Shown here piece after piece: positions 6,186-34,945 of a stretch of 64,000 nt of DNA; positions within the stretch are counted from its first letter, which is position 1; every line of letters begins with the position of its first letter. Source of the DNA: a virus (lineage: Duplodnaviria; Caudoviricetes). The position numbers and the translations under genes were made by a program. Below the pieces are notes generated by a model that saw nothing but the letters and a program-made list of their open reading frames with translations, did no database searches and was not told the DNA's origin. Where the stretch lies: the IMG/VR virus record IMGVR_UViG_3300047160_036266, positions 224,001 to 288,000 of that record; one strand, given 5' to 3'.

Positions 6186-7559
6186 ATGTTCCGCATGAAC
6201 TTCAGGGACTTTCTGCATGAGGCCGAGATCGTGGGTGGACAGTTGATGGGCAGCGAACAGGCTGCGCTGCGCATCGTCATGCCCTTCAGAAATAGCAACT
6301 GGCACATGCTGACCCTGCTCGATGGCCCACACCATCCGATCCATAGCCCGAAACAAGGCTCTATTATCGACTGCATGACCGTGGAGGAATTCCTGACCAA
6401 CGGCCTAGCCGGCTGGGCGGACGACGACACGCCACGACCTCGCCACCTTGCGGTTCTCCAGGTCATTGATAAGAACGCTGCGATCCGCTGTTTGGACGGC
6501 ACCCACATGACCAATCCCTGGCAATGGTTAAACTTCGACGCCAACTTTATGCGTCAAGCAGCAATGCGTGGCTTAAAAGACATGAAGCCGGTTATGTATC
6601 AGGGCAAGGAAATCAGTCCGGGTGGTGCCCCGAATTGGGAGAAGATAGCGCATCAGATGTTTCACGGCCCTGACCCGTTCGCCAAACCGGGGGCGAAGCA
6701 GCCTGACCTAACGGATCAGGAACGGGATGAGATGTGGCGAGCCAAGCTCGCCAAGACCATCTATGGCGATCTGCCCGACGTGTATGCCAAAGGAACCCGG
6801 CGGGACACGATGTACAACGACAAATATTATCAGCGGTACGGCAAGGTCATGCGGGGTGCCGACATCGACATCGTGGCTGAACATTGCCCGCTGAGCAAGG
6901 GTGGTTTTATCAAGGTCTTCAACCCCAGGGTTGTGCGCGAGGTCGCGCGTTTTCAAATTCGTTCTAACTTTGACGGCTATCGCAGCATGGGTGGTGACTT
7001 TTTGGCGACCAGGCCGGCATCGGAGAAGGAAGCCGAAGGAGTACAAGATAAACTCAACGACATCTTCCAAGATATTGCAGATGCACCGGAGGAAATGAGC
7101 AAGCGCATCGGCTATGTTATGGACAGCGAAGAGATGATGCGTTACATGGGGGGCGAGGAAGTTGAGGGTATCGGCTCGTTTGTGTTCCATGTGCTAGACG
7201 AAATCCACACCATCACCCGGACGGAGGGTATGGAGAAGATGATCCGTGGCTTGTACAAGGCATCCCGGCTCATGGGCATGATGCGCACACGCAGCGGCCA
7301 AGACTTCTCCGATGCCTGGGACGGAGTAGTTCGGTACAATCTTGAGTTCTACAAGAATATCCTGGTCGGCCTCCGGTCGATGAGCAAGCTCATCAAGGAT
7401 CAGTACGCTTACAAGGAAGGTGACAAGTATTACCGTGATGAGGCTGCTAAGCTCGACAAATGGTTTGCTGGGCTGACGCGATCCCTCATGGCCTTTGCGG
7501 ATGTGACGGGCCAATCGACGGAGCTACTGCGGCACCAACTTGGCCTGTTCACTGCTTAA
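6186..7559 (+). CDS. hypothetical, putative internal head protein
   Basis: MFRMNFRDFLHEAE start; TATATA 5 nt upstream. Confidence 0.7.
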   Translation: MFRMNFRDFLHEAEIVGGQLMGSEQAALRIVMPFRNSNWHMLTLLDGPHHPIHSPKQGSIIDCMTVEEFLTNGLAGWADDDTPRPRHLAVLQVIDKNAAIRCLDGTHMTNPWQWLNFDANFMRQAAMRGLKDMKPVMYQGKEISPGGAPNWEKIAHQMFHGPDPFAKPGAKQPDLTDQERDEMWRAKLAKTIYGDLPDVYAKGTRRDTMYNDKYYQRYGKVMRGADIDIVAEHCPLSKGGFIKVFNPRVVREVARFQIRSNFDGYRSMGGDFLATRPASEKEAEGVQDKLNDIFQDIADAPEEMSKRIGYVMDSEEMMRYMGGEEVEGIGSFVFHVLDEIHTITRTEGMEKMIRGLYKASRLMGMMRTRSGQDFSDAWDGVVRYNLEFYKNILVGLRSMSKLIKDQYAYKEGDKYYRDEAAKLDKWFAGLTRSLMAFADVTGQSTELLRHQLGLFTA

Positions 7560-8371
7560 AAGTTCTTCCAGATGCACTCGGTCTTGATCTTCTTGACCTT
7601 GGCCTGGGAGGAGTGGTTGGGTATCTTCTTTTTCACGCACTTCCAGCCTTTGTACAGCCGGTAATAGAGGGTTGAGTAATAGCCGCTTATCATGGCCTTG
7701 CCCTGGAAACGATTGAGGGCACGGGCTAACTCGATGTGGTCGGCCTCCGTCATTTCCAACTCGTAGGAGTCGGGACTAACGCGCGTTTCATGGAGGTAGG
7801 TCGGGTCGCAGTAGATGAGCGTATTGGGGTGGTTCCACTTGTCGATCACTTCCAGGGCCGGGCGGCTGAGGATATAAACGGACTTGATGCGTTCTGCAAC
7901 CAGGGGCAGGACATCGTTCAGGGCCGTCTCCCAGGCATTCAGGTCGCCCGGCTGTCCGCCACGAAGACGTTCGGACCAGGCGAACGCCTTCATCAGTCCG
8001 TCACGGGACATCCGCCGCAGGATGAAGGAATTGATCGCCTGATGGAAGAAGGTTATTTGCCGTTCGTCCTTGCACTCCAAAGCGCCACGAAAGACCTCTT
8101 TGCAGTATTTGATCTTCTTGAGGTAGTCGATGAACTCCTGGGTGTTGTCCCGGAGCATCTTGAAGATCAACGTCACGCCTTCGTCCAGGTCGTTGATCGT
8201 TTCCTCGAACTCCAGTGAGGAGGGAGGTTTTTTGTTGAGCAGGACGCTGGCCGCACCGCAATACGGCTCCAGGTAGTTCATCTCGGTATAATTCGGCGGA
8301 AAGTTGGCAATGATCCACGGGGCCAGGTAATACTTGCCGCCATGAATCTTGAAGGGGGGCCGAATGCGCAT
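7556..8371 (-). CDS. dam: DNA adenine methyltransferase (Dam/D12 class)
   Basis: GGKYYLA, YLEPYCGAASV, INDLD and IYCDPTY motifs. Confidence 0.9.
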   Translation of the reverse strand: MRIRPPFKIHGGKYYLAPWIIANFPPNYTEMNYLEPYCGAASVLLNKKPPSSLEFEETINDLDEGVTLIFKMLRDNTQEFIDYLKKIKYCKEVFRGALECKDERQITFFHQAINSFILRRMSRDGLMKAFAWSERLRGGQPGDLNAWETALNDVLPLVAERIKSVYILSRPALEVIDKWNHPNTLIYCDPTYLHETRVSPDSYELEMTEADHIELARALNRFQGKAMISGYYSTLYYRLYKGWKCVKKKIPNHSSQAKVKKIKTECIWKNF

Positions 8372-8600: not shown

Positions 8601-8903
8601 ATGCTGCAAACCCTAAGAAAGATGGCCTGTTCCGTCTACGAACCCCTCACCCAAGCTAACCTGCTCTCCCTGGTGGGTCCGACCAGTGGTGCCTACGCCA
8701 TGCTCTCGCCCCTGCCTCTGGATCGTTGGAAGATCATCAGTTTTGATTCGGCCAATGCTCTCGTGTGCATCCAGATGGACGCCCCATCCGGCAGCAGGAT
8801 AATCAACGTGAAGGTGGACATCAGCGCAATGGAAACCCCACCCCAAACCCAACCGAGACAATTTAACGACGTTCATCCCACCGGGCAATACACGCCGCAC
8901 TAG
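8601..8903 (+). CDS. hypothetical protein
   Basis: ORF with TAAATA 4 nt upstream. Confidence 0.55.
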   Translation: MLQTLRKMACSVYEPLTQANLLSLVGPTSGAYAMLSPLPLDRWKIISFDSANALVCIQMDAPSGSRIINVKVDISAMETPPQTQPRQFNDVHPTGQYTPH

Positions 8904-10156
8904 CTCTTGAAATAGTTGCGGTTCCCCAAGCATTCATTGGCTTCGCTGATGCGCTTGAGGGCCAGTGCGTAGCACGCCGTCCGCACCGGGATGTGATACT
9001 GGAACCGCCGCACCATCGTCCGCTCGGTGGCATACTGCATCATCTTTTTCAGCCGGCTGTTTACGTCGTCCAGGGTCTTTAGCTCGGCGGTGCGGTTCTG
9101 CAACCACTCAAAATAGGAGACGACTACGCCACCGGCATTCGCCAATATATCAGGAATCACCACGATATTTTTTTCGTTCAAAATGGCGTCGGCCTCGTTG
9201 GTGGTCGGCCCGTTCGCCAATTCAAATACCATCCTGGCCCGGACTTGATCGGCATTCTCAGCGGTCAAGACGTTCTCGATAGCCGCCGGGGCCAATATGT
9301 CAACGTCCAACAGGAGCAATTCCTTGTTGGTGATCTTACTGCCCTGGCCGTCCAATTCCCCTGACTCCAGGTGCTTGCGCAGGGCGACGGGATTGAGGCC
9401 GTTCTCGTTGTAGACCCCGCCGTTCTCATTGCTTATCGCCACCACTTTCAGGCCATTCTTGTAGCACTTCTCGGCAAACCAGTATCCGACCTTGCCGAAC
9501 CCCTGGATCGCAATGCGGATCGACTCCTTCACCGGCAGGTTCACCTTGTCCAGATAGTGGTCCATCAGTGCTTCCAGCACATAATAGCCACCGTAGCCCG
9601 TGGCCGAGTTTCTTCCTTCGATACCGCCCAGCGCCACAGGCTTGCCCGTCACTACGTCCAGAGGATGTCCGCCCTTGATCTTGCGGTACTCGCTGTACAT
9701 CCAGCCCATCACCCGCTCGTCGGTCCCCATGTCCGGGGCCGGAATGTCGATATTCGGCCCAATAAAGTCGGCCACGGCAGCAATATAAGCCTTGCTCAAC
9801 CGCTCCAGTTCACGATGGGACAGTTTCTTGGGGTCCACGCTGATCCCGCCCTTGGAACCGCCGAAGGGAATGTTCAGGGCCGCACATTTGAACGTCATCC
9901 AGAATGCCAGCGCCTCGCAATGATCCCGGTCCACCGCCGGGTGATAACGCACCCCACCCTTGGCCGGACCACGGGTAGTATCATATTGACAGCGGTATGC
10001 CTTGTAGAGCTTGAGAGTTCCGTCGTCGTGACGCATGGGGATGGAACAGTACAATGTTTTTTGTGGATATTGCAGGCGCTCCCAGCTTTCCGGGTCGATG
10101 TCTGCATATTTGGCAGCGGCGTCAAGCTGCTTCTTCGCGTCTTCGAGCATAGACAT
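8900..10156 (-). CDS. gdhA: glutamate dehydrogenase (Glu/Leu/Phe/Val dehydrogenase family)
   Basis: GPAKGGVRYHP, GGSKGG, DIPAPD, VTGKP, QGFGKVG, ELANGP and ANAGGVVVSYFEW motifs. Confidence 0.95.
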   Translation of the reverse strand: MSMLEDAKKQLDAAAKYADIDPESWERLQYPQKTLYCSIPMRHDDGTLKLYKAYRCQYDTTRGPAKGGVRYHPAVDRDHCEALAFWMTFKCAALNIPFGGSKGGISVDPKKLSHRELERLSKAYIAAVADFIGPNIDIPAPDMGTDERVMGWMYSEYRKIKGGHPLDVVTGKPVALGGIEGRNSATGYGGYYVLEALMDHYLDKVNLPVKESIRIAIQGFGKVGYWFAEKCYKNGLKVVAISNENGGVYNENGLNPVALRKHLESGELDGQGSKITNKELLLLDVDILAPAAIENVLTAENADQVRARMVFELANGPTTNEADAILNEKNIVVIPDILANAGGVVVSYFEWLQNRTAELKTLDDVNSRLKKMMQYATERTMVRRFQYHIPVRTACYALALKRISEANECLGNRNYFKS

Positions 10157-10234
10157 GGGGCCTCCTTGTATATATCACGAAACCGAGGCAGTTTTATTTA
10201 TTCCAAATCGTCTTCATGGCACCTACATACAAAC

Positions 10235-11044
10235 ATGAAATCGTTCTTTTTTGCGTGCCTATTTACCACATCTTTATTGTTCACCCTGACATCGAGATTT
10301 TCAACTAAGGCGGACGAACCGGACATCGAGTTACATAAAAAGTGTCTGTACCCGACCGTGCGCGTGGAGAATGAAGGGAGTGGCGGCACCGGCGTTATTG
10401 TTCGTAGCGATAGGGTAGGCGACAAGGAATATCGAAATGTTGCCATCACCTGCGCCCATGTTATCCATCCATTGTCAAGATACAAGGTTCGCGTCCCGAC
10501 CTACGAAGAGTGGTCCACCTTCGTGGAGTTCGAGGATTATCCGTGTCGCGTGTACGGCAAGAATGAGGATGCGGACCTGACTGTTCTGTTGTTTACCACA
10601 CCCCGCCCGATGCCAGTGGCCACCTTCGGGTTCCGGGAAAGTTTGTATATCGGCACCGACGTATATCACATCGGTTGCGGGCTGGGGCCTGAGCCTCGTC
10701 TGGATTATGGGAAGATCACTTCCCTTGGCAGCAAGATCGAAGGCCACAGTGCCAAAGCCTATCGGACCTCAATGAACATGGTTCCTGGGGATTCGGGAGG
10801 GCCGGTATTCCACAAGCACCGCCTGGTGGGCTTTTCCCAGGCGATCAAGGTATTGTGTTTCCGGGGCTTCCCCACGCCCATCACACACATATCCTACATC
10901 ATTCCAGTGGAGCGGGTTAAAACCTGGGATGAAAAGGAAAATAACACCCTGCATTTCATATATAAGGAGCGACACGACTTGCCAGAGCTTCCCTTCGCCA
11001 TCTTGCGATTGGAAGAGTATCGCTGGGAGGGTCTTCCTAAGTAG
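10235..11044 (+). CDS. trypsin-like serine protease with N-terminal signal peptide
   Basis: TCAHV (His), DADL (Asp), PGDSGGPV (Ser); hydrophobic N-terminus; start reassigned to 10235. Confidence 0.85.
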   Translation: MKSFFFACLFTTSLLFTLTSRFSTKADEPDIELHKKCLYPTVRVENEGSGGTGVIVRSDRVGDKEYRNVAITCAHVIHPLSRYKVRVPTYEEWSTFVEFEDYPCRVYGKNEDADLTVLLFTTPRPMPVATFGFRESLYIGTDVYHIGCGLGPEPRLDYGKITSLGSKIEGHSAKAYRTSMNMVPGDSGGPVFHKHRLVGFSQAIKVLCFRGFPTPITHISYIIPVERVKTWDEKENNTLHFIYKERHDLPELPFAILRLEEYRWEGLPK

Positions 11045-11055
11045 CGGAGAAGGGG

Positions 11056-12627
11056 ATGCAAACTTTCCAAGATTATGTGACTTCCAATAAAATGCACCGG
11101 CTGGCCGGACAGGCGTTTACCCTGATGGTCCAGCACGGCTACGATCCGATGGCGTTCGTAGAGTGGTTTGAGGACGAGGGCGTTTACCTGTCGGTGCGGG
11201 AAGCAGCAGTCCAAGCGAAAGGTGGGCTTCGTCGCCTGGATGAATTATCATGGGCTAACTTGGTAGGAAAAGGGTGGTTGTGGGGGCGTGGCAAGCAACA
11301 GCCAAAAGGACCAAGTTGGGATGAAATCGGCGGGCCGGAAATGTTCCCCCATGATGAAACCCCCGGTGCCGCAGGCGCAGCCCAAGGTGCCACTCCGGGA
11401 CAGCCACAGCAACCAATGACTGCGCCGCAAATGGGCGACCTTACCAAACAGCGTGCAGTCCAAAATGCTGTAACCAAGCTGCAAGATTTGCAATACAAAG
11501 ATTGGATTTATGACAAGAACCCTCAGCTTACTGCGGCGCTGAATCAAATTGTTCAGTTGTTGCAGGCCCCGCAGGTGCCGGTACAGCAAACGCAACCACC
11601 AGCCGCCCCCACAGAACAACCAGCCAAACCACCACAGGTTCATGCCTCAACGATAGCACCCGTTGGGTCGCCGCCGCCGGGTGGTGCGCATATGGCTCCT
11701 TCGTTTATGAATGCCGACTGGCGTACTCCTGCCGGTTCGCCATTGAGGGAGTACAACAAGATGCTTATTGACCGTACCGTGGATAAACTGGTACGGGCAG
11801 GCATCAACCCGATGTTATTTGTGGACTGGTATAGCACCGAAGGTATTTTCTGTGAAAACGCTCAGGTGTTCGAGGGCCGCTTAGGGGATTGGATGGGGGC
11901 CATTGGCAAGGGTATTGGGAGTTGGTTCGGTGGAAGCGGCTTTAAGCACGGTTATGATGCGCGTTACAACACCATTGCCGTGCAGACGGCAGGAGCGGCC
12001 AGGCAAGCCTTGGCTGATCTCCAAAGCACTCACCCAGACCTGGGTGGCCCAAATATGGCCAGCAACCTAAAGTTCGCAATCGGTGAGTTGGATAAGATCA
12101 TCAAAGAGAAGGGCGGCACTGAATTTAAGGACATCAACAAGCCGGCATCGGGAGTGGATTGGTCCAAACTGAAAGGGCCAACGCCTGGTGAAGAGCAACC
12201 ACCGGGTTCGGCGCAGCCGCCTGCGGCGGCTAAGCCTGCGGAACCCGCCCCCGCACCAGTACCGGCGGGTCACACTCCTGGCACTACAGCACCGTCGCAG
12301 GAAGGCATCCCACCGGAGACTATAACCAAGCTCCGTAATGCAATAGACAATCCAAGCCATGCCGATGCCAGCGACCCCCAGGTGGCGGAAATCCTGAATA
12401 ACCCACAGATCAAGGCCGAGGTCGAGCGGATTCACAAACTGGATGACAATGACCCGCAATTTGCCGGAAAAGACCCGCAAACAGCGAAGCACGAACTAAT
12501 TGCCCAGCAGGTCCGAAATATTTGGGACCAACTGCGCAGCGGTCATATTGATGTTGGTGCCCAGGGTGCTGACTGGTACAGACCCATCGGCAAGCCCTTT
12601 ATGGAATGGCTCAGAGAGAGGCAATAA
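11056..12627 (+). CDS. hypothetical Pro/Gln-rich putative internal head protein
   Basis: MQTFQDYV start; duplicated G(Y/I)xPMxFV(E/D)W..EG module. Confidence 0.7.
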   Translation: MQTFQDYVTSNKMHRLAGQAFTLMVQHGYDPMAFVEWFEDEGVYLSVREAAVQAKGGLRRLDELSWANLVGKGWLWGRGKQQPKGPSWDEIGGPEMFPHDETPGAAGAAQGATPGQPQQPMTAPQMGDLTKQRAVQNAVTKLQDLQYKDWIYDKNPQLTAALNQIVQLLQAPQVPVQQTQPPAAPTEQPAKPPQVHASTIAPVGSPPPGGAHMAPSFMNADWRTPAGSPLREYNKMLIDRTVDKLVRAGINPMLFVDWYSTEGIFCENAQVFEGRLGDWMGAIGKGIGSWFGGSGFKHGYDARYNTIAVQTAGAARQALADLQSTHPDLGGPNMASNLKFAIGELDKIIKEKGGTEFKDINKPASGVDWSKLKGPTPGEEQPPGSAQPPAAAKPAEPAPAPVPAGHTPGTTAPSQEGIPPETITKLRNAIDNPSHADASDPQVAEILNNPQIKAEVERIHKLDDNDPQFAGKDPQTAKHELIAQQVRNIWDQLRSGHIDVGAQGADWYRPIGKPFMEWLRERQ

Positions 12628-13828
12628 TCTTCACGGCTTCGTCGGCATCCTCCATGCTGAAGGTGAGCGGCGGTCGCAGTCGAATACTGCGGTCGCCGCT
12701 TTTCAGCATCAACATCCTGTCGCTCAACCTGCAATAAGCCTCGCCCTGGTCAATCGGATCAAAAGCAATCATCAGCCCCCGACCCCGTACATTACGAATC
12801 GGAACATTGGCGTTGCGGAGTTTGTCCAGCAGGTAGTCCCCGACTTTGGCGGCGTTCTCCACCCACTTTTCCCTCACGATGATCTCACTCAGAATAGTGA
12901 AGCGTATCATATCGAGGATGTTGCCGCCCCAGGTGCTATTGATGCGCCCGCTGTCGTTGAAGACGTGCTTGGTCACTTCGTCCACTTTATGGGTGGCACA
13001 GCAACCGCACACCTGGGTCTTCTTGCCGAAGCACATGAGGTCGGGTTGGAGGTCGAAGTGTTCGTAGCCCCACATTTTGCCGGTCAGACCTACGCCCGTT
13101 TGCACTTCGTCCACGATGAACAGAGCGTCGTATTTCCGGGCGAGAGAACGGAGGCCCTGGAGGTATTGGGGCCGGAAATGGATGTCACCCCCTTCGCCTT
13201 GAATTGGCTCCACAATAACGGCAGCTACATTGCCACGCTCCAGGGCGTTCTGGGCGACCGCTAGACTTGCCTCCTCGCCGTCGTTAGGGGCGGGCAGCCT
13301 GGTCCAGCGGAACTTGGGATAGCCCCAAGTCTTGACGGGCTTGGTGTTGGTGAGGGACAGCGTGTAGCCGCTCCGACCGTGGAACGCATGTTCCAGGTGG
13401 ATCACATCCAATATATTGGCATGTGCGTCCCGGTCCCAGCCCATCTTCTTCATCTTGTAATCAAAGGCGCACTTGAGGGCGTTCTCCACTCCCAGGGTGC
13501 CGGTGTCGATAAAGAAGTAGTAACGGAAGTCTGGGGTGATGCTTTTGAACGCCTCTACGAATTCGGCGTACTCCCGAACGTATACGTCCGACAGGGCGAT
13601 CTTTACCGACAGGAGAGAGCGGAAACGGTCCAGGTGGTCGTTGAAGGAGGGGTGGTTCCAGCCGAGAGGTTGGCTGGCGAACATCGACATGCAATCGAGG
13701 TATTTGGTGCCGGTGCGGGCGTCAACTACATAGGAGCCGAGACTGCGCAGAGGGTCCACAATGATGGGAAGACCATCCCCTATCGTGTGCTTTCGCAACA
13801 CGTCATGGACATCCTCGTTGCGAATCAT
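12611..13828 (-). CDS. lat: L-lysine 6-aminotransferase (class III PLP aminotransferase)
   Basis: VHDVLRKH..DG..YLD..ASQPLGWNHP, AFHGRSGYTLSLT, EPIQGEGGD, DEVQTG, FGKKTQVCG, RINSTWGGN resemble actinobacterial Lat. Confidence 0.85.
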   Translation of the reverse strand: MIRNEDVHDVLRKHTIGDGLPIIVDPLRSLGSYVVDARTGTKYLDCMSMFASQPLGWNHPSFNDHLDRFRSLLSVKIALSDVYVREYAEFVEAFKSITPDFRYYFFIDTGTLGVENALKCAFDYKMKKMGWDRDAHANILDVIHLEHAFHGRSGYTLSLTNTKPVKTWGYPKFRWTRLPAPNDGEEASLAVAQNALERGNVAAVIVEPIQGEGGDIHFRPQYLQGLRSLARKYDALFIVDEVQTGVGLTGKMWGYEHFDLQPDLMCFGKKTQVCGCCATHKVDEVTKHVFNDSGRINSTWGGNILDMIRFTILSEIIVREKWVENAAKVGDYLLDKLRNANVPIRNVRGRGLMIAFDPIDQGEAYCRLSDRMLMLKSGDRSIRLRPPLTFSMEDADEAVKIIASL

Positions 13829-13831
13829 GGG

Positions 13832-14107
13832 TTAAATCCAGCCGGTTTTTATTCCTTGTTGGATGTCTTCCAACGTCACCTTGCGGCCCAAGAAGTCGCT
13901 GACGCTCTGGATAAAATGCTTGGCAATATCTTCCTGTACGGCACGCATGAACTGCGGTCCCATCTTTTGCGCTTCAATGAAAGACGATGAATCCACCGAC
14001 CAATCCAGCATTTCGCCGCCAATGAAAATCTTCTTTTCGATACTCCCGTCTGGGTGCATTCGCATTTTAACTTCAAAAGACTTCTTCTCAAGTGGTTCGT
14101 CAGCCAT
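13832..14107 (-). CDS. hypothetical protein
   Basis: ORF upstream of lat; TATAAT 5 nt before the ATG. Confidence 0.6.
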   Translation of the reverse strand: MADEPLEKKSFEVKMRMHPDGSIEKKIFIGGEMLDWSVDSSSFIEAQKMGPQFMRAVQEDIAKHFIQSVSDFLGRKVTLEDIQQGIKTGWI

Positions 14108-14139
14108 GTTTTATTATAGTGCGTTCCCTACATATTTCC

Positions 14140-15558
14140 ATGCCAGATGCCCTGTCCTTCCGCCTGTGGTTACAACAGCAGGAGACGCTGCCGCCGTTTG
14201 AGGAAGGCGTCATGCAGTGGCTTGGCGATAAATGGGGTAGGTTCAAGAAGTGGCTGGGCGATTTGAAGCAGGCGGCTGGCGCGACCTATCGCTCCGTCAT
14301 GGTCATGTGGAAGAAAGCCCCGGAACTGCATAACGTGCTGATGGAATTGCCCATTGCCTTTGACGCCGCCATGCGCGACCCCGTTCTCAAGGACACCACC
14401 CTCAATAAGAGCTTCATCGCTGCCCTCAAGCAGATGTCCCAAGACCCCTCGCTGGAAAAACAAGCAATACTCGCCAAGATCAAGAATATTCAGCAGTTGG
14501 TTCAGCAAGGCGGCGACGAGGCAGCCATTGCTGAGGAGTTCTGGCGGTCCAACGTCGGAGGCTTTGTCCGCTGGCTGTGGCAGCTTACTCACCTGGGTCC
14601 GATCCTGAAGCGACTGCCCCAGGTCACGGTGGTAAATGCCTGGCGGACTTTGCAGGCGTTCTGGGATAAGGAGCAGGGGAAAGTATCCGTCAAGGTCGGT
14701 GCCTTTGCCGCCGTTATGGCAGCCCTGGAGTTGTTGCAATTTCTGGCAGCCGGTGCCCTGATGACCGGGTTGTTGGGCAAGGCCCTTATTCTCTTGCACC
14801 TTACCACGCTGGGGGTGGCTTTTGCCGGCGGGGCCTGGATTGCCTGGGCGGTGGTCAGCGCCCTCCATAAAGAGGGAGGCCAAAAGGACTCTGAGGAAGA
14901 GCAGGCTGCCAAGATCATGGCCGGTGTGATGAAGGCCATCGACCCAGGTGCCGACACGGGCCTCATGAAGAATGTGGACTGGTATAAGAGCCATCTGCGG
15001 CAGCGCCAGCAGAAGATACAGCAGCAGCGCGCCGGCGTCCAACCAGCAGTTGCCGAAAGTACCGCCCACGAGTTATACGATAGCGCCGTTGCCGCCTTCC
15101 CCAACACCACCAGGAGGCAACACGCTACGGACCCCATTAGAATCACCCAACTGGAGTGGACGCCCTTCCTGGGACTGAAAACCCTGTTCATCAAGGCCCT
15201 GGCGCAAAACCCGGACGGCACCAGGGGCTTCTCGGAATATCAGCCGATGATTTTGTGGAAGAACGTCAACTACAATCCGAACCGGCGAGTTGTTGAGATC
15301 ATCGCCAGTGACCAGCAGCCCTATCGCTTCGAGAGGTTGGAATATGATGGCAATGACGTGTTGCTGCGCTGTGATTGTGCCGACTTCCACTGGCGATTCA
15401 ACTACTACGACCACCTGGACAAGTCCCTTTACGGCAGGAAGCGGCGCAAATACGAGAGTCAGGGCGGTCCTCCGGCCAACCCCCAGGAGATGCCGGGCAT
15501 GTGCAAACACATCATGAAGCTGTTCAAGGCTTTAGGTGAAGCAGGCGTCGTTGATTAG
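14140..15558 (+). CDS. putative internal head protein with hydrophobic helices and a C-terminal SWIM-type Zn finger
   Basis: SFRLWLQQQE start; long hydrophobic segment; CDCADF..CKH motif. Confidence 0.65.
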   Translation: MPDALSFRLWLQQQETLPPFEEGVMQWLGDKWGRFKKWLGDLKQAAGATYRSVMVMWKKAPELHNVLMELPIAFDAAMRDPVLKDTTLNKSFIAALKQMSQDPSLEKQAILAKIKNIQQLVQQGGDEAAIAEEFWRSNVGGFVRWLWQLTHLGPILKRLPQVTVVNAWRTLQAFWDKEQGKVSVKVGAFAAVMAALELLQFLAAGALMTGLLGKALILLHLTTLGVAFAGGAWIAWAVVSALHKEGGQKDSEEEQAAKIMAGVMKAIDPGADTGLMKNVDWYKSHLRQRQQKIQQQRAGVQPAVAESTAHELYDSAVAAFPNTTRRQHATDPIRITQLEWTPFLGLKTLFIKALAQNPDGTRGFSEYQPMILWKNVNYNPNRRVVEIIASDQQPYRFERLEYDGNDVLLRCDCADFHWRFNYYDHLDKSLYGRKRRKYESQGGPPANPQEMPGMCKHIMKLFKALGEAGVVD

Positions 15559-19474: not shown

Positions 19475-19490
19475 GACCTATATATCAGCG

Positions 19491-32362: not shown

Positions 32363-34945
32363 TCAATCTTCACCTATGCTGTAGTCGATGTCCTCTTCGT
32401 CCTGCTCAGCCTCATAATCTTGAATCTCCAGATCAAATTTCCTAATGTCTTCGTCGTCCGGTTCCGCCAGCGGTGCCCCTTCGGCGGGATTCGGCCCTGG
32501 TGCGCCACTCGGACCCGTTTCAGGCGGCGATTCCATCGCCACCCCACCGCCAGGCGGTGGAGCGCCGCCTCCTGGCGGCGGTGTAAGACCCATCGTGCCG
32601 GGTCCACCCGGCCCAGGTGACGGTCCCAGCATCGGACTTGGGCCTCCCGGTTCCGTGCCCATTTCCTGGCCGGGCTGGGGAGTCTGCCCCGGTACGCCCA
32701 CACCCAGCAGTTGTGGGTTCTGAGCCAAGACCTGCAACTTCAGGTCTTCGAGTTTCTGTATCTTCAGCCGGGCAAGCATTTCTTCGGCCTCTTCCGTGCT
32801 ATATTTCATCCACTTCGTCTGGATGTCCCAATCCGCCATTAGCTGAGAGGATTTCAGGCTGCTCGCGTTGTTTATACGGTTCGTCGTGACTTCCGCCCGG
32901 CTGAGTTCCCGCCAATCGCTCGGCGGGGTCATCTTTATGCGTAGGTCGTCGTATGACTCTTCGGGGAACCCCCGTAGTTGCAGGTGACGGTCGGCCATCT
33001 CCCACAAACCATCTTCCATGTGCGACTGCAACCGCTCGATCATGCGGGCGAACTTGATGTCCTGCGCACTGAGCGTGATGCGAGTTGCGTTGGGGTCTTC
33101 GTTATTGAAGTAATTCTTGGGAAAATTCAGGGCGGCGAACAACTTATTTCTGAAATAAACGGCGTCATCAATCTCACCAAGGTTCTGCGCCCCCGGCAAC
33201 GTGTCGATCTTGGTGTTAGAGTTGGGCCTGATCGGCAACCAATAGTCCTCATCCGCCGCCGGCGCGTGCCAGCGTTCTTCGACTATGGAGGAGGCACCGA
33301 ACTGGCTGCCCCGGCTGCTGGCTATCTTCTTCTTGCGGAACTGGTCCTTCATCCGCTCGATAAATGCCTCTGCCTTGAAGGGCGGCAACTGGCCGACATC
33401 AATATAGAACACCCGACGCTCCGGCGCACGGGTCAACCGATACACCACCATCGCGTCTTCCATCAACCGCAACTGGTGAGCCGGTCCACGGGCCGCTTCA
33501 ACCAGAGACACCCCGTAGGGGTAGAAGGTCTTGCGATCATCCCCGATGCGGATGTGGACAATCTGCTCTGGGGCAAACCGTATGGCGGTTGCCTGCATGA
33601 TTTCGGAGTCGGTCGCCTGGACCACCGGGGCGCGAATGAGGCTTTGGTAGTCGGGGCCTTCCTTGCTTTGCTGGAACTCCACCACCTTGCCCTTGGTCGT
33701 CTCGATGCGGTATATTGACTCTGGCGGCAGGCGGACTATTTTCATCACACCGTCCTTGGGCTGGTCCGGGTTGATGACTATTTCGTAGAACAAGTCGCCA
33801 AAGATGCACAGGTTCTTGAAGTCGCTCCAGGTACGGCGGTCCATGTTCAGCATCAGGCGGTGGAAAAATAGGAACTCAAGCTCCTCCTTGACATCCCGGT
33901 TCTTGCATTCGATTTTGAAGACGTGGTTATTCTCGTCCTTCTGGCAGTTGTGGAATATCACGGATTTTGAGCAAAAGTTCTGGTGGCCCTCTACGGACAA
34001 GTCGTATACGTCCATTGTCTGGTATTCTTGAATACCAATGACCCGGCGGCGGTCCTCCTTCTTCGCCAAATGCCGTATTTCTTTAAGGGAGAAACCTTCC
34101 TTTTGCAGACATAACTTGATGGTATTCCAGTCGTGGGGGACCGTCCGCTTGATGTCATTCATCGCCATGCCGGCGCTGGCAGCCCGGATGATCTTGTTCA
34201 ACCTTTCGTATCGTGCCTCCGGGTGGCCGCACCGCCATTGCTCCACGAACTGCCGCTCGTGCATCCAGCCCTGTGTGTGCGTGAAGATGCGTGGGAACTG
34301 GCTGGTCTTGAGCTTCGTGAAGTTTTGGTTGGCCTTGACCCGGTAGAAGGGCATCAACTCGTCACCAAACTTGAGGCCCCCGGCCATCGTCCATTCGCCC
34401 GAACGCAACAATACTCGATGGTCCGGGGTGGCGATGAAATGATCGCCATTATCCAGCACCACCTTCACAGTTGGGGCGGTTTTGGTCTTGCGAGGAGCGA
34501 AACCCCAGCCCAGGGTGTAGTCGCCCTTGGCAAAGTCCCAGCAATACAGTAGAAACTTCTCGTCGGGCTTGTTCTTGGCCAGCCACTCGATGGTCGGGAA
34601 TCCGAAGGGGGTAGCGATCTCTGTGTCGCCCGCCACGCACGCCTCGTCGGCAAAGACCGTCATCGCCATCTCAATCTCGGCCACGTTGCGGAGACGTTCG
34701 TACTCCTTGTACCGGGACATGCGGTTGCTGACGGTAGAAAGGTCGATGAAGTCCTGTGTCTCCCGGTAACGCACGAGCCGCTGCTCATTGCCGCCCCAGA
34801 AGGAACCGTCCGGCCCCATGCTGGGAATGGCGTCGGGCTGCGAGATGCCAGCGCCGGTCAAGTCCCTTACGTCGATCTTCCTCGCCAGAGGGTCTTTCGC
34901 AAAGGCGTAGGTGAATAGCTTGAAATAGTCAGCCCATATAGGCAT
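32363..34945 (-). CDS. portal protein (gp20-like) interrupted by an intein
   Basis: RYKEYERL, QLRLMEDAMVVYRLTRAPERRVFYIDVG.LP..KAE, EDYWLP, LPGAQNLGEIDD. Confidence 0.95.
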   Translation of the reverse strand: MPIWADYFKLFTYAFAKDPLARKIDVRDLTGAGISQPDAIPSMGPDGSFWGGNEQRLVRYRETQDFIDLSTVSNRMSRYKEYERLRNVAEIEMAMTVFADEACVAGDTEIATPFGFPTIEWLAKNKPDEKFLLYCWDFAKGDYTLGWGFAPRKTKTAPTVKVVLDNGDHFIATPDHRVLLRSGEWTMAGGLKFGDELMPFYRVKANQNFTKLKTSQFPRIFTHTQGWMHERQFVEQWRCGHPEARYERLNKIIRAASAGMAMNDIKRTVPHDWNTIKLCLQKEGFSLKEIRHLAKKEDRRRVIGIQEYQTMDVYDLSVEGHQNFCSKSVIFHNCQKDENNHVFKIECKNRDVKEELEFLFFHRLMLNMDRRTWSDFKNLCIFGDLFYEIVINPDQPKDGVMKIVRLPPESIYRIETTKGKVVEFQQSKEGPDYQSLIRAPVVQATDSEIMQATAIRFAPEQIVHIRIGDDRKTFYPYGVSLVEAARGPAHQLRLMEDAMVVYRLTRAPERRVFYIDVGQLPPFKAEAFIERMKDQFRKKKIASSRGSQFGASSIVEERWHAPAADEDYWLPIRPNSNTKIDTLPGAQNLGEIDDAVYFRNKLFAALNFPKNYFNNEDPNATRITLSAQDIKFARMIERLQSHMEDGLWEMADRHLQLRGFPEESYDDLRIKMTPPSDWRELSRAEVTTNRINNASSLKSSQLMADWDIQTKWMKYSTEEAEEMLARLKIQKLEDLKLQVLAQNPQLLGVGVPGQTPQPGQEMGTEPGGPSPMLGPSPGPGGPGTMGLTPPPGGGAPPPGGGVAMESPPETGPSGAPGPNPAEGAPLAEPDDEDIRKFDLEIQDYEAEQDEEDIDYSIGED
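33947..34639 (-). mobile_element. 231-aa mini-intein (Hint) in the portal
   Basis: C1-VAGDT, block B ATPDHRV, block F DVYDLSVEGHQNF, terminal HN followed by a +1 Cys; no LAGLIDADG or HNH motif seen. Confidence 0.92.

Follow-up and report, generated by a model that had tools for sequence, protein, structure and literature searches.

L-Lysine 6-aminotransferase (LAT; EC 2.6.1.36), a pyridoxal 5′-phosphate (PLP)-dependent enzyme known from Mycobacterium tuberculosis (Rv3290c; PDB entry 2cin), Streptomyces and Nocardia, stands at the head of a cellular pathway in which lat and pcd lead from lysine to 2-aminoadipate. A second cellular route, formed by LAT and Δ1-pyrroline-5-carboxylate (P5C) reductase, leads to L-pipecolate. 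The hexameric glutamate dehydrogenases (GDHs) of the Thermotoga, Thermococcales and Bacillus RocG type (PDB entries 2tmg, 1b26, 1euz and 3k92), with subunits of approximately 47 kDa, catalyse the interconversion of glutamate and 2-oxoglutarate. Phages are known to conserve host-type enzymes of central metabolism, among them viral glutamine synthetase and asparagine synthase, which presumably redirect the nitrogen flux of the host (PMC13196213). Here a different pair of enzymes of this kind, a LAT and a GDH, is described from an uncultured giant T4-like phage (megaphage). Both genes lie in a 64,000-nucleotide stretch of DNA (the window) that spans positions 224001–288000 of the 343-kb IMG/VR virus record IMGVR_UViG_3300047160_036266. 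The favoured interpretation, which is given about an even chance, is that two separately transcribed auxiliary genes, lat and gdh, provide a coupled, facultative transdeamination of lysine. In a limited literature check, neither a phage LAT nor a GDH of large phages turned up in any paper; the pair extends the catalogue of auxiliary metabolic genes and changes no established concept.

The two genes are uninterrupted open reading frames (ORFs) on the minus strand, 2,454 bp apart (Table 1), in agreement with an earlier note on this DNA, which had described intact lat and gdh genes on one strand at a distance of about 2.5 kb. The enzyme names proposed there hold at the level of the family. The lat product contains a class-III (fold type I) aminotransferase domain over its full length (PF00202, 259.7 bits, residues 22–403). 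Its best NCBIfam model, TIGR03251 (L-lysine 6-transaminase, 447.3 bits), leads the next family by 258 bits, with the argD, γ-aminobutyrate (GABA), ornithine and putrescine aminotransferase models all at or below 189 bits. The best solved relative is the M. tuberculosis lysine ε-aminotransferase 2cin (E = 4e-96, 326 bits), residues 19–442 of which align collinearly with residues 6–403 of the phage protein; the next solved family is putrescine aminotransferase (E = 3e-36), and all other structures score 129 bits or less.

In M. tuberculosis LAT, the PLP site comprises G128, A129, F167, H168, E238, D271, V273, Q274, K300, S329 and T330, and lysine and 2-oxoglutarate are bound by V63, R170 (carboxylate), E243 (the ‘switch’), R422 (2-oxoglutarate) and N328 (PMC9780415). 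These positions were compared across 16 phage LATs and a cellular set made up of the 80 best LATs of GTDB species genomes, which come from many phyla and are 42–50% identical. Residues G128, F167, H168, E238, D271, Q274, K300, S329 and T330 (M. tuberculosis numbering) are invariant in all 96 sequences, as are R170, E243 and R422 (R152, E212 and R383 in the phage enzyme). The position of A129 is occupied by Thr or Ala; at the equivalent of N328 (phage N297), 13 of the 16 phage LATs have Asn and the other 3 have Ser; and the position of V63 is Phe or Tyr in nearly all phage LATs and Phe in most cellular ones. All the named lysine-pocket and PLP-site residues are therefore kept, invariantly or conservatively, or match the cellular majority, and the phage enzyme shares with cellular LAT its fold, the PLP lysine and pocket, and the set R170, E243, R422 and T330. 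Residues R170, E243 and R422 are common to other ω-aminotransferases, so that they are necessary and not sufficient for lysine as a substrate. We infer that lysine is by far the best-supported substrate of the phage enzyme.

The phage LAT is 25–40 residues shorter than the cellular enzymes and shorter than any other member of its group, and it has lost a loop of 14 residues after residue 181. In the LAT tree, the viral sequences fall on one side and the 80 cellular sequences on the other side of a split with a support of 100. Because of this fully supported split, the loop deletion and a TIGR03251 score under the equivalog cut-off, the phage LAT is best described as a member of a virus-specific sister lineage of the LAT family. 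In one relative (L015:6692–8404), the LAT frame is open for approximately 430–570 nucleotides upstream of the usual start, which could represent an N-terminal extension or read-through from s91, the small gene that precedes lat.

The gdh product contains the domains PF02812 (ELFV_dehydrog_N, 180.6 bits) and PF00208 (ELFV_dehydrog, 209.5 bits), both at full length as in the hexameric GDHs, and aligns end to end with solved hexameric structures, best with that of Thermotoga maritima (2tmg, E = 8e-111, 374 bits). It scores below the NCBIfam equivalog cut-offs of GdhB_Halo (439.5 against 620) and GdhA_Arch (433 against 750), which we take to be lineage-specific models. In alignment columns of 24 phage GDHs, residues K66, K102, D142 and S347 do not vary, nor do the Rossmann glycines. 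By reference to Clostridium symbiosum GDH, the four residues are, we assume, the catalytic pair (Lys and Asp) and the pair (Lys and Ser) that binds the γ-carboxylate and so favours glutamate over Leu, Phe or Val; the GxGxxG motif of the hexameric enzymes is likewise retained. Of the 24 phage GDHs, 21 have Asn at residue 243 (codon near 9430), directly behind the second Rossmann strand, whereas the residue is Asp in the T. maritima enzyme and in the sole cellular GDH of that alignment. This clade-specific Asp-to-Asn change may bear on coenzyme preference.

Homologues of the GDH are numerous in phages: they form at least 120 clusters at 90% identity, share 64–84% of their residues with the present GDH and come from contigs as long as 673 kb, including metagenome contigs of 580–673 kb. 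In a search of 1.8 billion proteins, clustering at 50% identity brought all phage GDHs under one representative (584 bits), and the best-scoring protein outside this cluster was 49% identical (400 bits). Among named cellular sequences, the closest are dispersed over Wenzhouxiangella, Anaerolineaceae, Parcubacteria and Gaiellaceae, and PHROGs contains no GDH family. Unlike the hexameric cellular GDHs, the protein thus belongs to a large phage-specific clade.

Both genes have been maintained by selection. In six close phage pairs, the ratio of nonsynonymous to synonymous substitution rates (dN/dS) is 0.05–0.13 for LAT and 0.015–0.07 for GDH, values low enough to indicate strong purifying selection. 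The genes lie inside a phage genome, are conserved in related phages and are under purifying selection, and are on these grounds phage auxiliary metabolic genes.

The distribution of the pair was sampled in IMG/VR from three anchors: GDH, LAT and the methylase gene that lies downstream of gdh. Among 26 contigs anchored on GDH, an intact LAT gene lies 1.5–4 kb upstream on the same strand in 15; the rest carry a LAT remnant (1), are cut by the contig end (3) or are LAT-less (7), meaning that no LAT was found within 10 kb or, where searched, in the whole record. The methylase anchor, which is unbiased for both genes, gave 23 assessable loci with 10-kb flanks. Both genes are present in 11 of these, and a further locus has GDH with a LAT remnant. 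Within the flanks, LAT occurs without GDH in 3 loci, GDH without LAT in 1 and neither gene in 7; two of the seven have a LAT approximately 11 kb from the methylase gene. The corresponding two-by-two table of LAT against GDH gives Fisher p values of 0.006–0.013, uncorrected for relatedness. The 63 loci anchored on LAT comprise 15 of megaphage type with GDH, 13 of megaphage type without a nearby GDH, approximately 20 from a second virus-labelled group without GDH, 8 with cell-like LATs, and a remainder too short to judge. Counting the present record, the two genes occur 1.5–4 kb apart on the same strand in 16 contigs, that is, in 16 of approximately 30 assessable megaphage LAT loci, as opposed to 1 of 80 cellular LAT loci with a GDH within 8 kb. 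The cellular LAT genes keep other company, most commonly an aldehyde dehydrogenase (20 of 80 loci) and, in 5 of 80, an Lrp/AsnC gene, whereas the phage gene is accompanied by s91 and by gdh 2.5 kb away. The co-occurrence that the earlier note had named as a check is thus found, with the pair side by side in 15 other IMG/VR contigs, but each gene also often occurs without the other nearby.

Where branches are well supported, the LAT tree matches the GDH tree, over which LAT-less tips are scattered, and this agreement argues that lat and gdh have long been inherited together within the phage clade. Our reading is that the pair is old in the clade and that either gene has probably been lost several times. 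In GDH-less relatives, including LR756511.1, a 595-kb metagenomic genome that is the closest GenBank phage (capsid protein 82% identical), the peptidase gene directly abuts the methylase gene, which shows that gdh was cleanly inserted or deleted at one fixed position. One LAT remnant (L011:6686–7198, on the same contig as L116 and L031) consists of a 182-residue open frame covering codons 235–402, the last 170 codons of LAT, and adjoins intact s91 and GDH genes, which looks like ongoing gene decay. One apparent ‘GDH only’ genome, G002 (430 kb, CheckV 97%), was not trusted: it has a partial Gp23-like match, and the 175-kb contig G013 from the same sample, with a consecutive identifier (3300044796_000657 and _000658), carries LAT and a full Gp23 capsid gene. 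The two are probably pieces of one genome of approximately 600 kb, so that the CheckV estimate of 97% completeness is unreliable for megaphages.

In the proposed mechanism, both enzymes would act on the lysine, glutamate and 2-oxoglutarate pool of the host. LAT would move the ε-amino group of L-lysine onto 2-oxoglutarate, yielding glutamate and 2-aminoadipate semialdehyde, which would cyclise to Δ1-piperideine-6-carboxylate (P6C), and GDH would interconvert glutamate with 2-oxoglutarate, ammonium and NAD(P)H. Where both are present, GDH would regenerate the amino acceptor, so that lysine would be deaminated catalytically (transdeamination) and the net products would be P6C, ammonium and NAD(P)H. 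The closed cycle of lysine, 2-oxoglutarate and glutamate that the earlier note had drawn is chemically sound, and the phage LATs keep the R170, E243 and R422 described for the M. tuberculosis enzyme (PMC9780415). The lysine substrate, the direction of GDH and the coupling of the two reactions are all three matters that we infer. If GDH were instead assimilatory, both enzymes would converge on making glutamate.

Since no downstream lysine-pathway gene is present in the record, the steps after P6C would fall to host enzymes. The phage would thus share the first step of the cellular pathway and supply the GDH that regenerates the acceptor, not the next catabolic enzyme, and P6C would be usable by ordinary host enzymes; the second virus-labelled group, by comparison, has an aldehyde dehydrogenase in its LAT operon. 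The idea that P6C or pipecolate serves as a substrate for a modification gained no support, as the record contains no downstream enzyme. P5C reductase of the host reduces P6C to L-pipecolate, and its participation would make the three-enzyme route redox-neutral. A broader proposal, regarded as distinctly unlikely, is that an ancient viral LAT lineage, found in T4-like megaphages (often with the phage-specific GDH) and in the second group inside a full operon of lysine-degradation type, reprograms host lysine catabolism, with LAT, GDH and host P5C reductase performing a redox-neutral conversion of lysine to pipecolate and ammonium that would mine nitrogen or make a compatible solute in hosts of nutrient-poor soil. 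If the two enzymes act as proposed, giant phages of a clade that is widespread in soil and sediment would be equipped to turn lysine into ammonium, reducing power and P6C, and lysine catabolism would join the short list of nitrogen pathways rewired by viruses. The virus-specific LAT lineage and the GDH clade supply compact enzymes suited to expression for assays, and the repeated losses of single genes offer a natural experiment on the mutual dependence of lat and gdh.

Several observations weigh against the coupled interpretation. The two genes do not form one operon, because they are separated by two genes of the opposite strand and are preceded by unlike promoter-like motifs. GDH occurs without LAT nearby in 7 contigs and beside a LAT remnant in 1 more, approximately 14 megaphage-type contigs carry LAT without a nearby GDH, among them LR756511.1, which has a LAT (54–56% identical, by two measures) and no GDH anywhere, and the LAT flanks of the second group contain no GDH in approximately 20 contigs. 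The 343-kb record, estimated to be 69% complete, contains no P6C (aldehyde) dehydrogenase, P5C reductase or glutamine synthetase. The adjacency may trace to one ancestral arrangement, in which case the counts and Fisher tests are not independent and do not prove selection for linkage. The phage LAT (447.3 bits) falls short of the TIGR03251 equivalog cut-off of 520.8, the viral LATs lie outside the sampled cellular clade, and neither the coenzyme preference nor the direction of GDH is readable from its sequence. A rival reading is that the two auxiliary genes work independently and have no more in common than their place in an accessory island, with GDH tuning glutamate, 2-oxoglutarate and ammonium, for example by converting ammonium to glutamate for phage synthesis, and LAT having a role of its own while host enzymes recycle its co-substrate. 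Such independence is consistent with the intact persistence of each gene without the other nearby in many relatives, with the clean insertion or deletion of gdh between the peptidase and methylase genes, with the separate transcription units, and with the second group, in which three whole records also lack GDH. It accounts less well for the adjacency in megaphages as opposed to cells, for the congruence of the two trees and for the fact that one enzyme makes what the other consumes, and is considered rather unlikely. Coupled transdeamination, if it takes place, would be facultative, because many relatives keep one gene only; of the coupled module in the earlier note, the frequent adjacency stands, whereas the arrangement is neither fixed nor co-transcribed.

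Doubt about the substrate takes a different form. The aminotransferase might transfer the amino group of another ω-amine to 2-oxoglutarate, for example that of GABA, ornithine, a diamine, or an intermediate of the amino sugar or nucleotide type, as the sub-cut-off score, the sharing of R170, E243 and R422 with other ω-aminotransferases and the sugar-nucleotide-type genes in the second-group operon would allow. When three further class-III enzymes serve as the outgroup, the root of the LAT tree also falls on the viral side, which leaves the viral LATs outside the 80-member cellular clade, but this outgroup rooting is subject to long-branch attraction. The margins by which the LAT model and the LAT structure exceed all others, the conservation of the named M. 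tuberculosis residues, and the company that LAT keeps in its sister group (aldehyde dehydrogenase, saccharopine dehydrogenase and a gene of the ornithine cyclodeaminase (OCD) family) all argue for lysine, and a different substrate is judged improbable. That LAT serves mainly to manipulate the host, with a drain on lysine or a rise in P6C shifting the stringent response or dormancy and GDH being incidental, draws on a link between mycobacterial LAT and persister formation through amino-acid levels, as reported in one study (PMC4726150). The link is known from mycobacteria only and nothing in the sequence bears on dormancy, so that this role is very improbable. The chance that the genes are cellular DNA, derived from the host flanks of a provirus or from a chimeric assembly, is negligible in spite of the IMG/VR label ‘provirus’ on the record: phage genes flank both genes on both sides, more than 15 independent viral contigs, the longest of 533 kb, share this gene order, and both lineages consist of virus-labelled or metagenome sequences only and are set off from the cellular homologues that were sampled. 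The synteny across many viral contigs was the ground for rejecting host contamination or a provirus flank.

The transcriptional arrangement is summarized with the coordinates in Table 1. The s91–lat junction reads TAA CCC ATG, and with the s91 stop codon this close to the lat start the two genes are probably one operon, with lat probably co-transcribed with s91 behind the sigma-70-like match. Upstream of gdh, TATATA lies at 10169–10174, 12 nucleotides before the ATG with AAGGAGG in between, and ATAAATA lies approximately 20 nucleotides further upstream on the gdh sense strand. TATATA occurs at 67 sites in the 343-kb record and within 60 nucleotides upstream of 34 of 371 ORFs, against 4 expected, often 4–20 nucleotides before the start codon; it is a real, non-random, genome-wide start-proximal motif in this phage. 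Examples in the window are at 19479, 21335, 35011, 47488 and 58002, often only 4–6 nucleotides before the ATG, and TAAATA and TAGATA are likewise enriched upstream of ORFs. If TATATA were a −10-type element, many genes would give leaderless or very short-leader mRNAs.

The earlier note had taken the TATATA upstream of gdh as a sign of late expression. The motif is present, but the expression class does not follow: the genes of the capsid protein and the prohead protease were found to lack an upstream TATATA, and relatives mostly do not keep it in front of gdh, where the upstream regions of 17 genes contain CTAAATA or ATAAATA (4), TATATA further upstream (2), TATAAA (1) or none of these (10). 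As TATATA is palindromic and lies in a divergent region, its orientation is ambiguous and it may serve the peptidase gene instead. An Rfam scan around the genes found no lysine riboswitch and no other element.

Table 1. Coordinates (window numbering) and supporting matches for features of the lat and gdh region
Feature	Coordinates	Strand	Evidence or remarks
D12-class (Dam-like) N6-adenine methyltransferase	7556–8371	-	Pfam MethyltransfD12 65.2 bits; syntenic anchor downstream of gdh
gdh, hexameric-type glutamate dehydrogenase, 418 aa	8900–10156	-	both ELFV domains; PDB 2tmg E 8e-111
Divergent intergenic region gdh/peptidase, 78 bp	10157–10234	.	TATATA, ATAAATA, AAGGAGG
Trypsin-like serine peptidase, 269 aa	10235–11044	+	Pfam Trypsin_2 67.6 bits; phrog_9683 protease
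Low-complexity protein, 523 aa, start MQTFQD	11056–12627	+	no Pfam or PHROG match
lat, LAT-family (lysine 6-aminotransferase-like) PLP enzyme, 405 aa	12611–13828	-	TIGR03251 447 bits; PDB 2cin E 4e-96
s91, conserved 91-aa protein	13832–14107	-	stop 3 nt before lat ATG
Sigma-70-like promoter match TGGAAA-16-TATAAT, 10/12	14113–14140	-	consensus scan; pattern match only

The window also carries the hallmark genes of a T4-like phage, encoding a Gp23-type capsid protein, a prohead protease, a T4-type portal and a large terminase. No near-identical DNA was found among GenBank phages. Most ‘phage’ tblastn matches for both proteins are bacterial contigs under phage names (25–47% identity), and these were not used as evidence. 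The record contains no second class-III aminotransferase.

Small ORFs lie between the methylase gene and gdh, and the peptidase gene and the gene of the 523-residue low-complexity protein, both on the plus strand, fill the interval between gdh and lat. The peptidase gene lies beside gdh or the methylase gene in most related loci across the clade, and the N terminus of its product is hydrophobic and signal-peptide-like (MKSFFFACLFTTSLLFTLTS); it is a backbone neighbour that may encode a secreted or periplasmic phage protease. The gene of the low-complexity protein is convergent with lat, their 3′ ends overlapping by 17 bp. The gene at this place is fast-evolving, its product proline- and glutamine-rich, internally repeated and 459–813 residues long across relatives, with only an N terminus of the MQTFQD or MKTF type conserved; counterparts include L004:11226–13667 (minus strand, 813 residues, same N terminus) and L017:8591–9970 (minus strand).

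The s91 gene directly precedes lat in most megaphage loci, and is present in two further contigs without LAT. Its product is conserved at a mean column identity of 68% over 13 phages, compared with 60% for LAT. It matched no Pfam or PHROG family, and its AlphaFold model (pLDDT 74) gave no PDB fold match. Beyond s91 lies a divergently oriented gene for a SWIM-finger protein.

The second virus-labelled group, unrelated to the megaphages, comprises approximately 20 contigs (approximately 18–161 kb) and holds the nearest LAT relatives outside the megaphages, 52–56% identical to the phage LAT; the three whole records contain no Gp23 capsid gene. Its LAT gene lies in a tight, same-strand operon (L194:6814–12566; also L158, L165, L160 and approximately 16 more loci) with the order glyoxalase-like, aldehyde dehydrogenase (431 bits), DDAH/amidinotransferase fold, LAT, UDPG/GDP-mannose dehydrogenase-like and DUF2784. 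In some contigs, genes for saccharopine dehydrogenase and an OCD/mu-crystallin protein are present as well, and the composition of the operon fits lysine and aminoadipate-semialdehyde chemistry for the viral LAT lineage. Genes of GlmS-like, class-I aldolase and E1_FCCH-domain proteins are also among its neighbours.

The portal gene of the megaphage window (32363–34945, minus strand) holds an intein, with the Pfam domain Intein_splicing at residues 154–333, ahead of the Portal_T4 domain.

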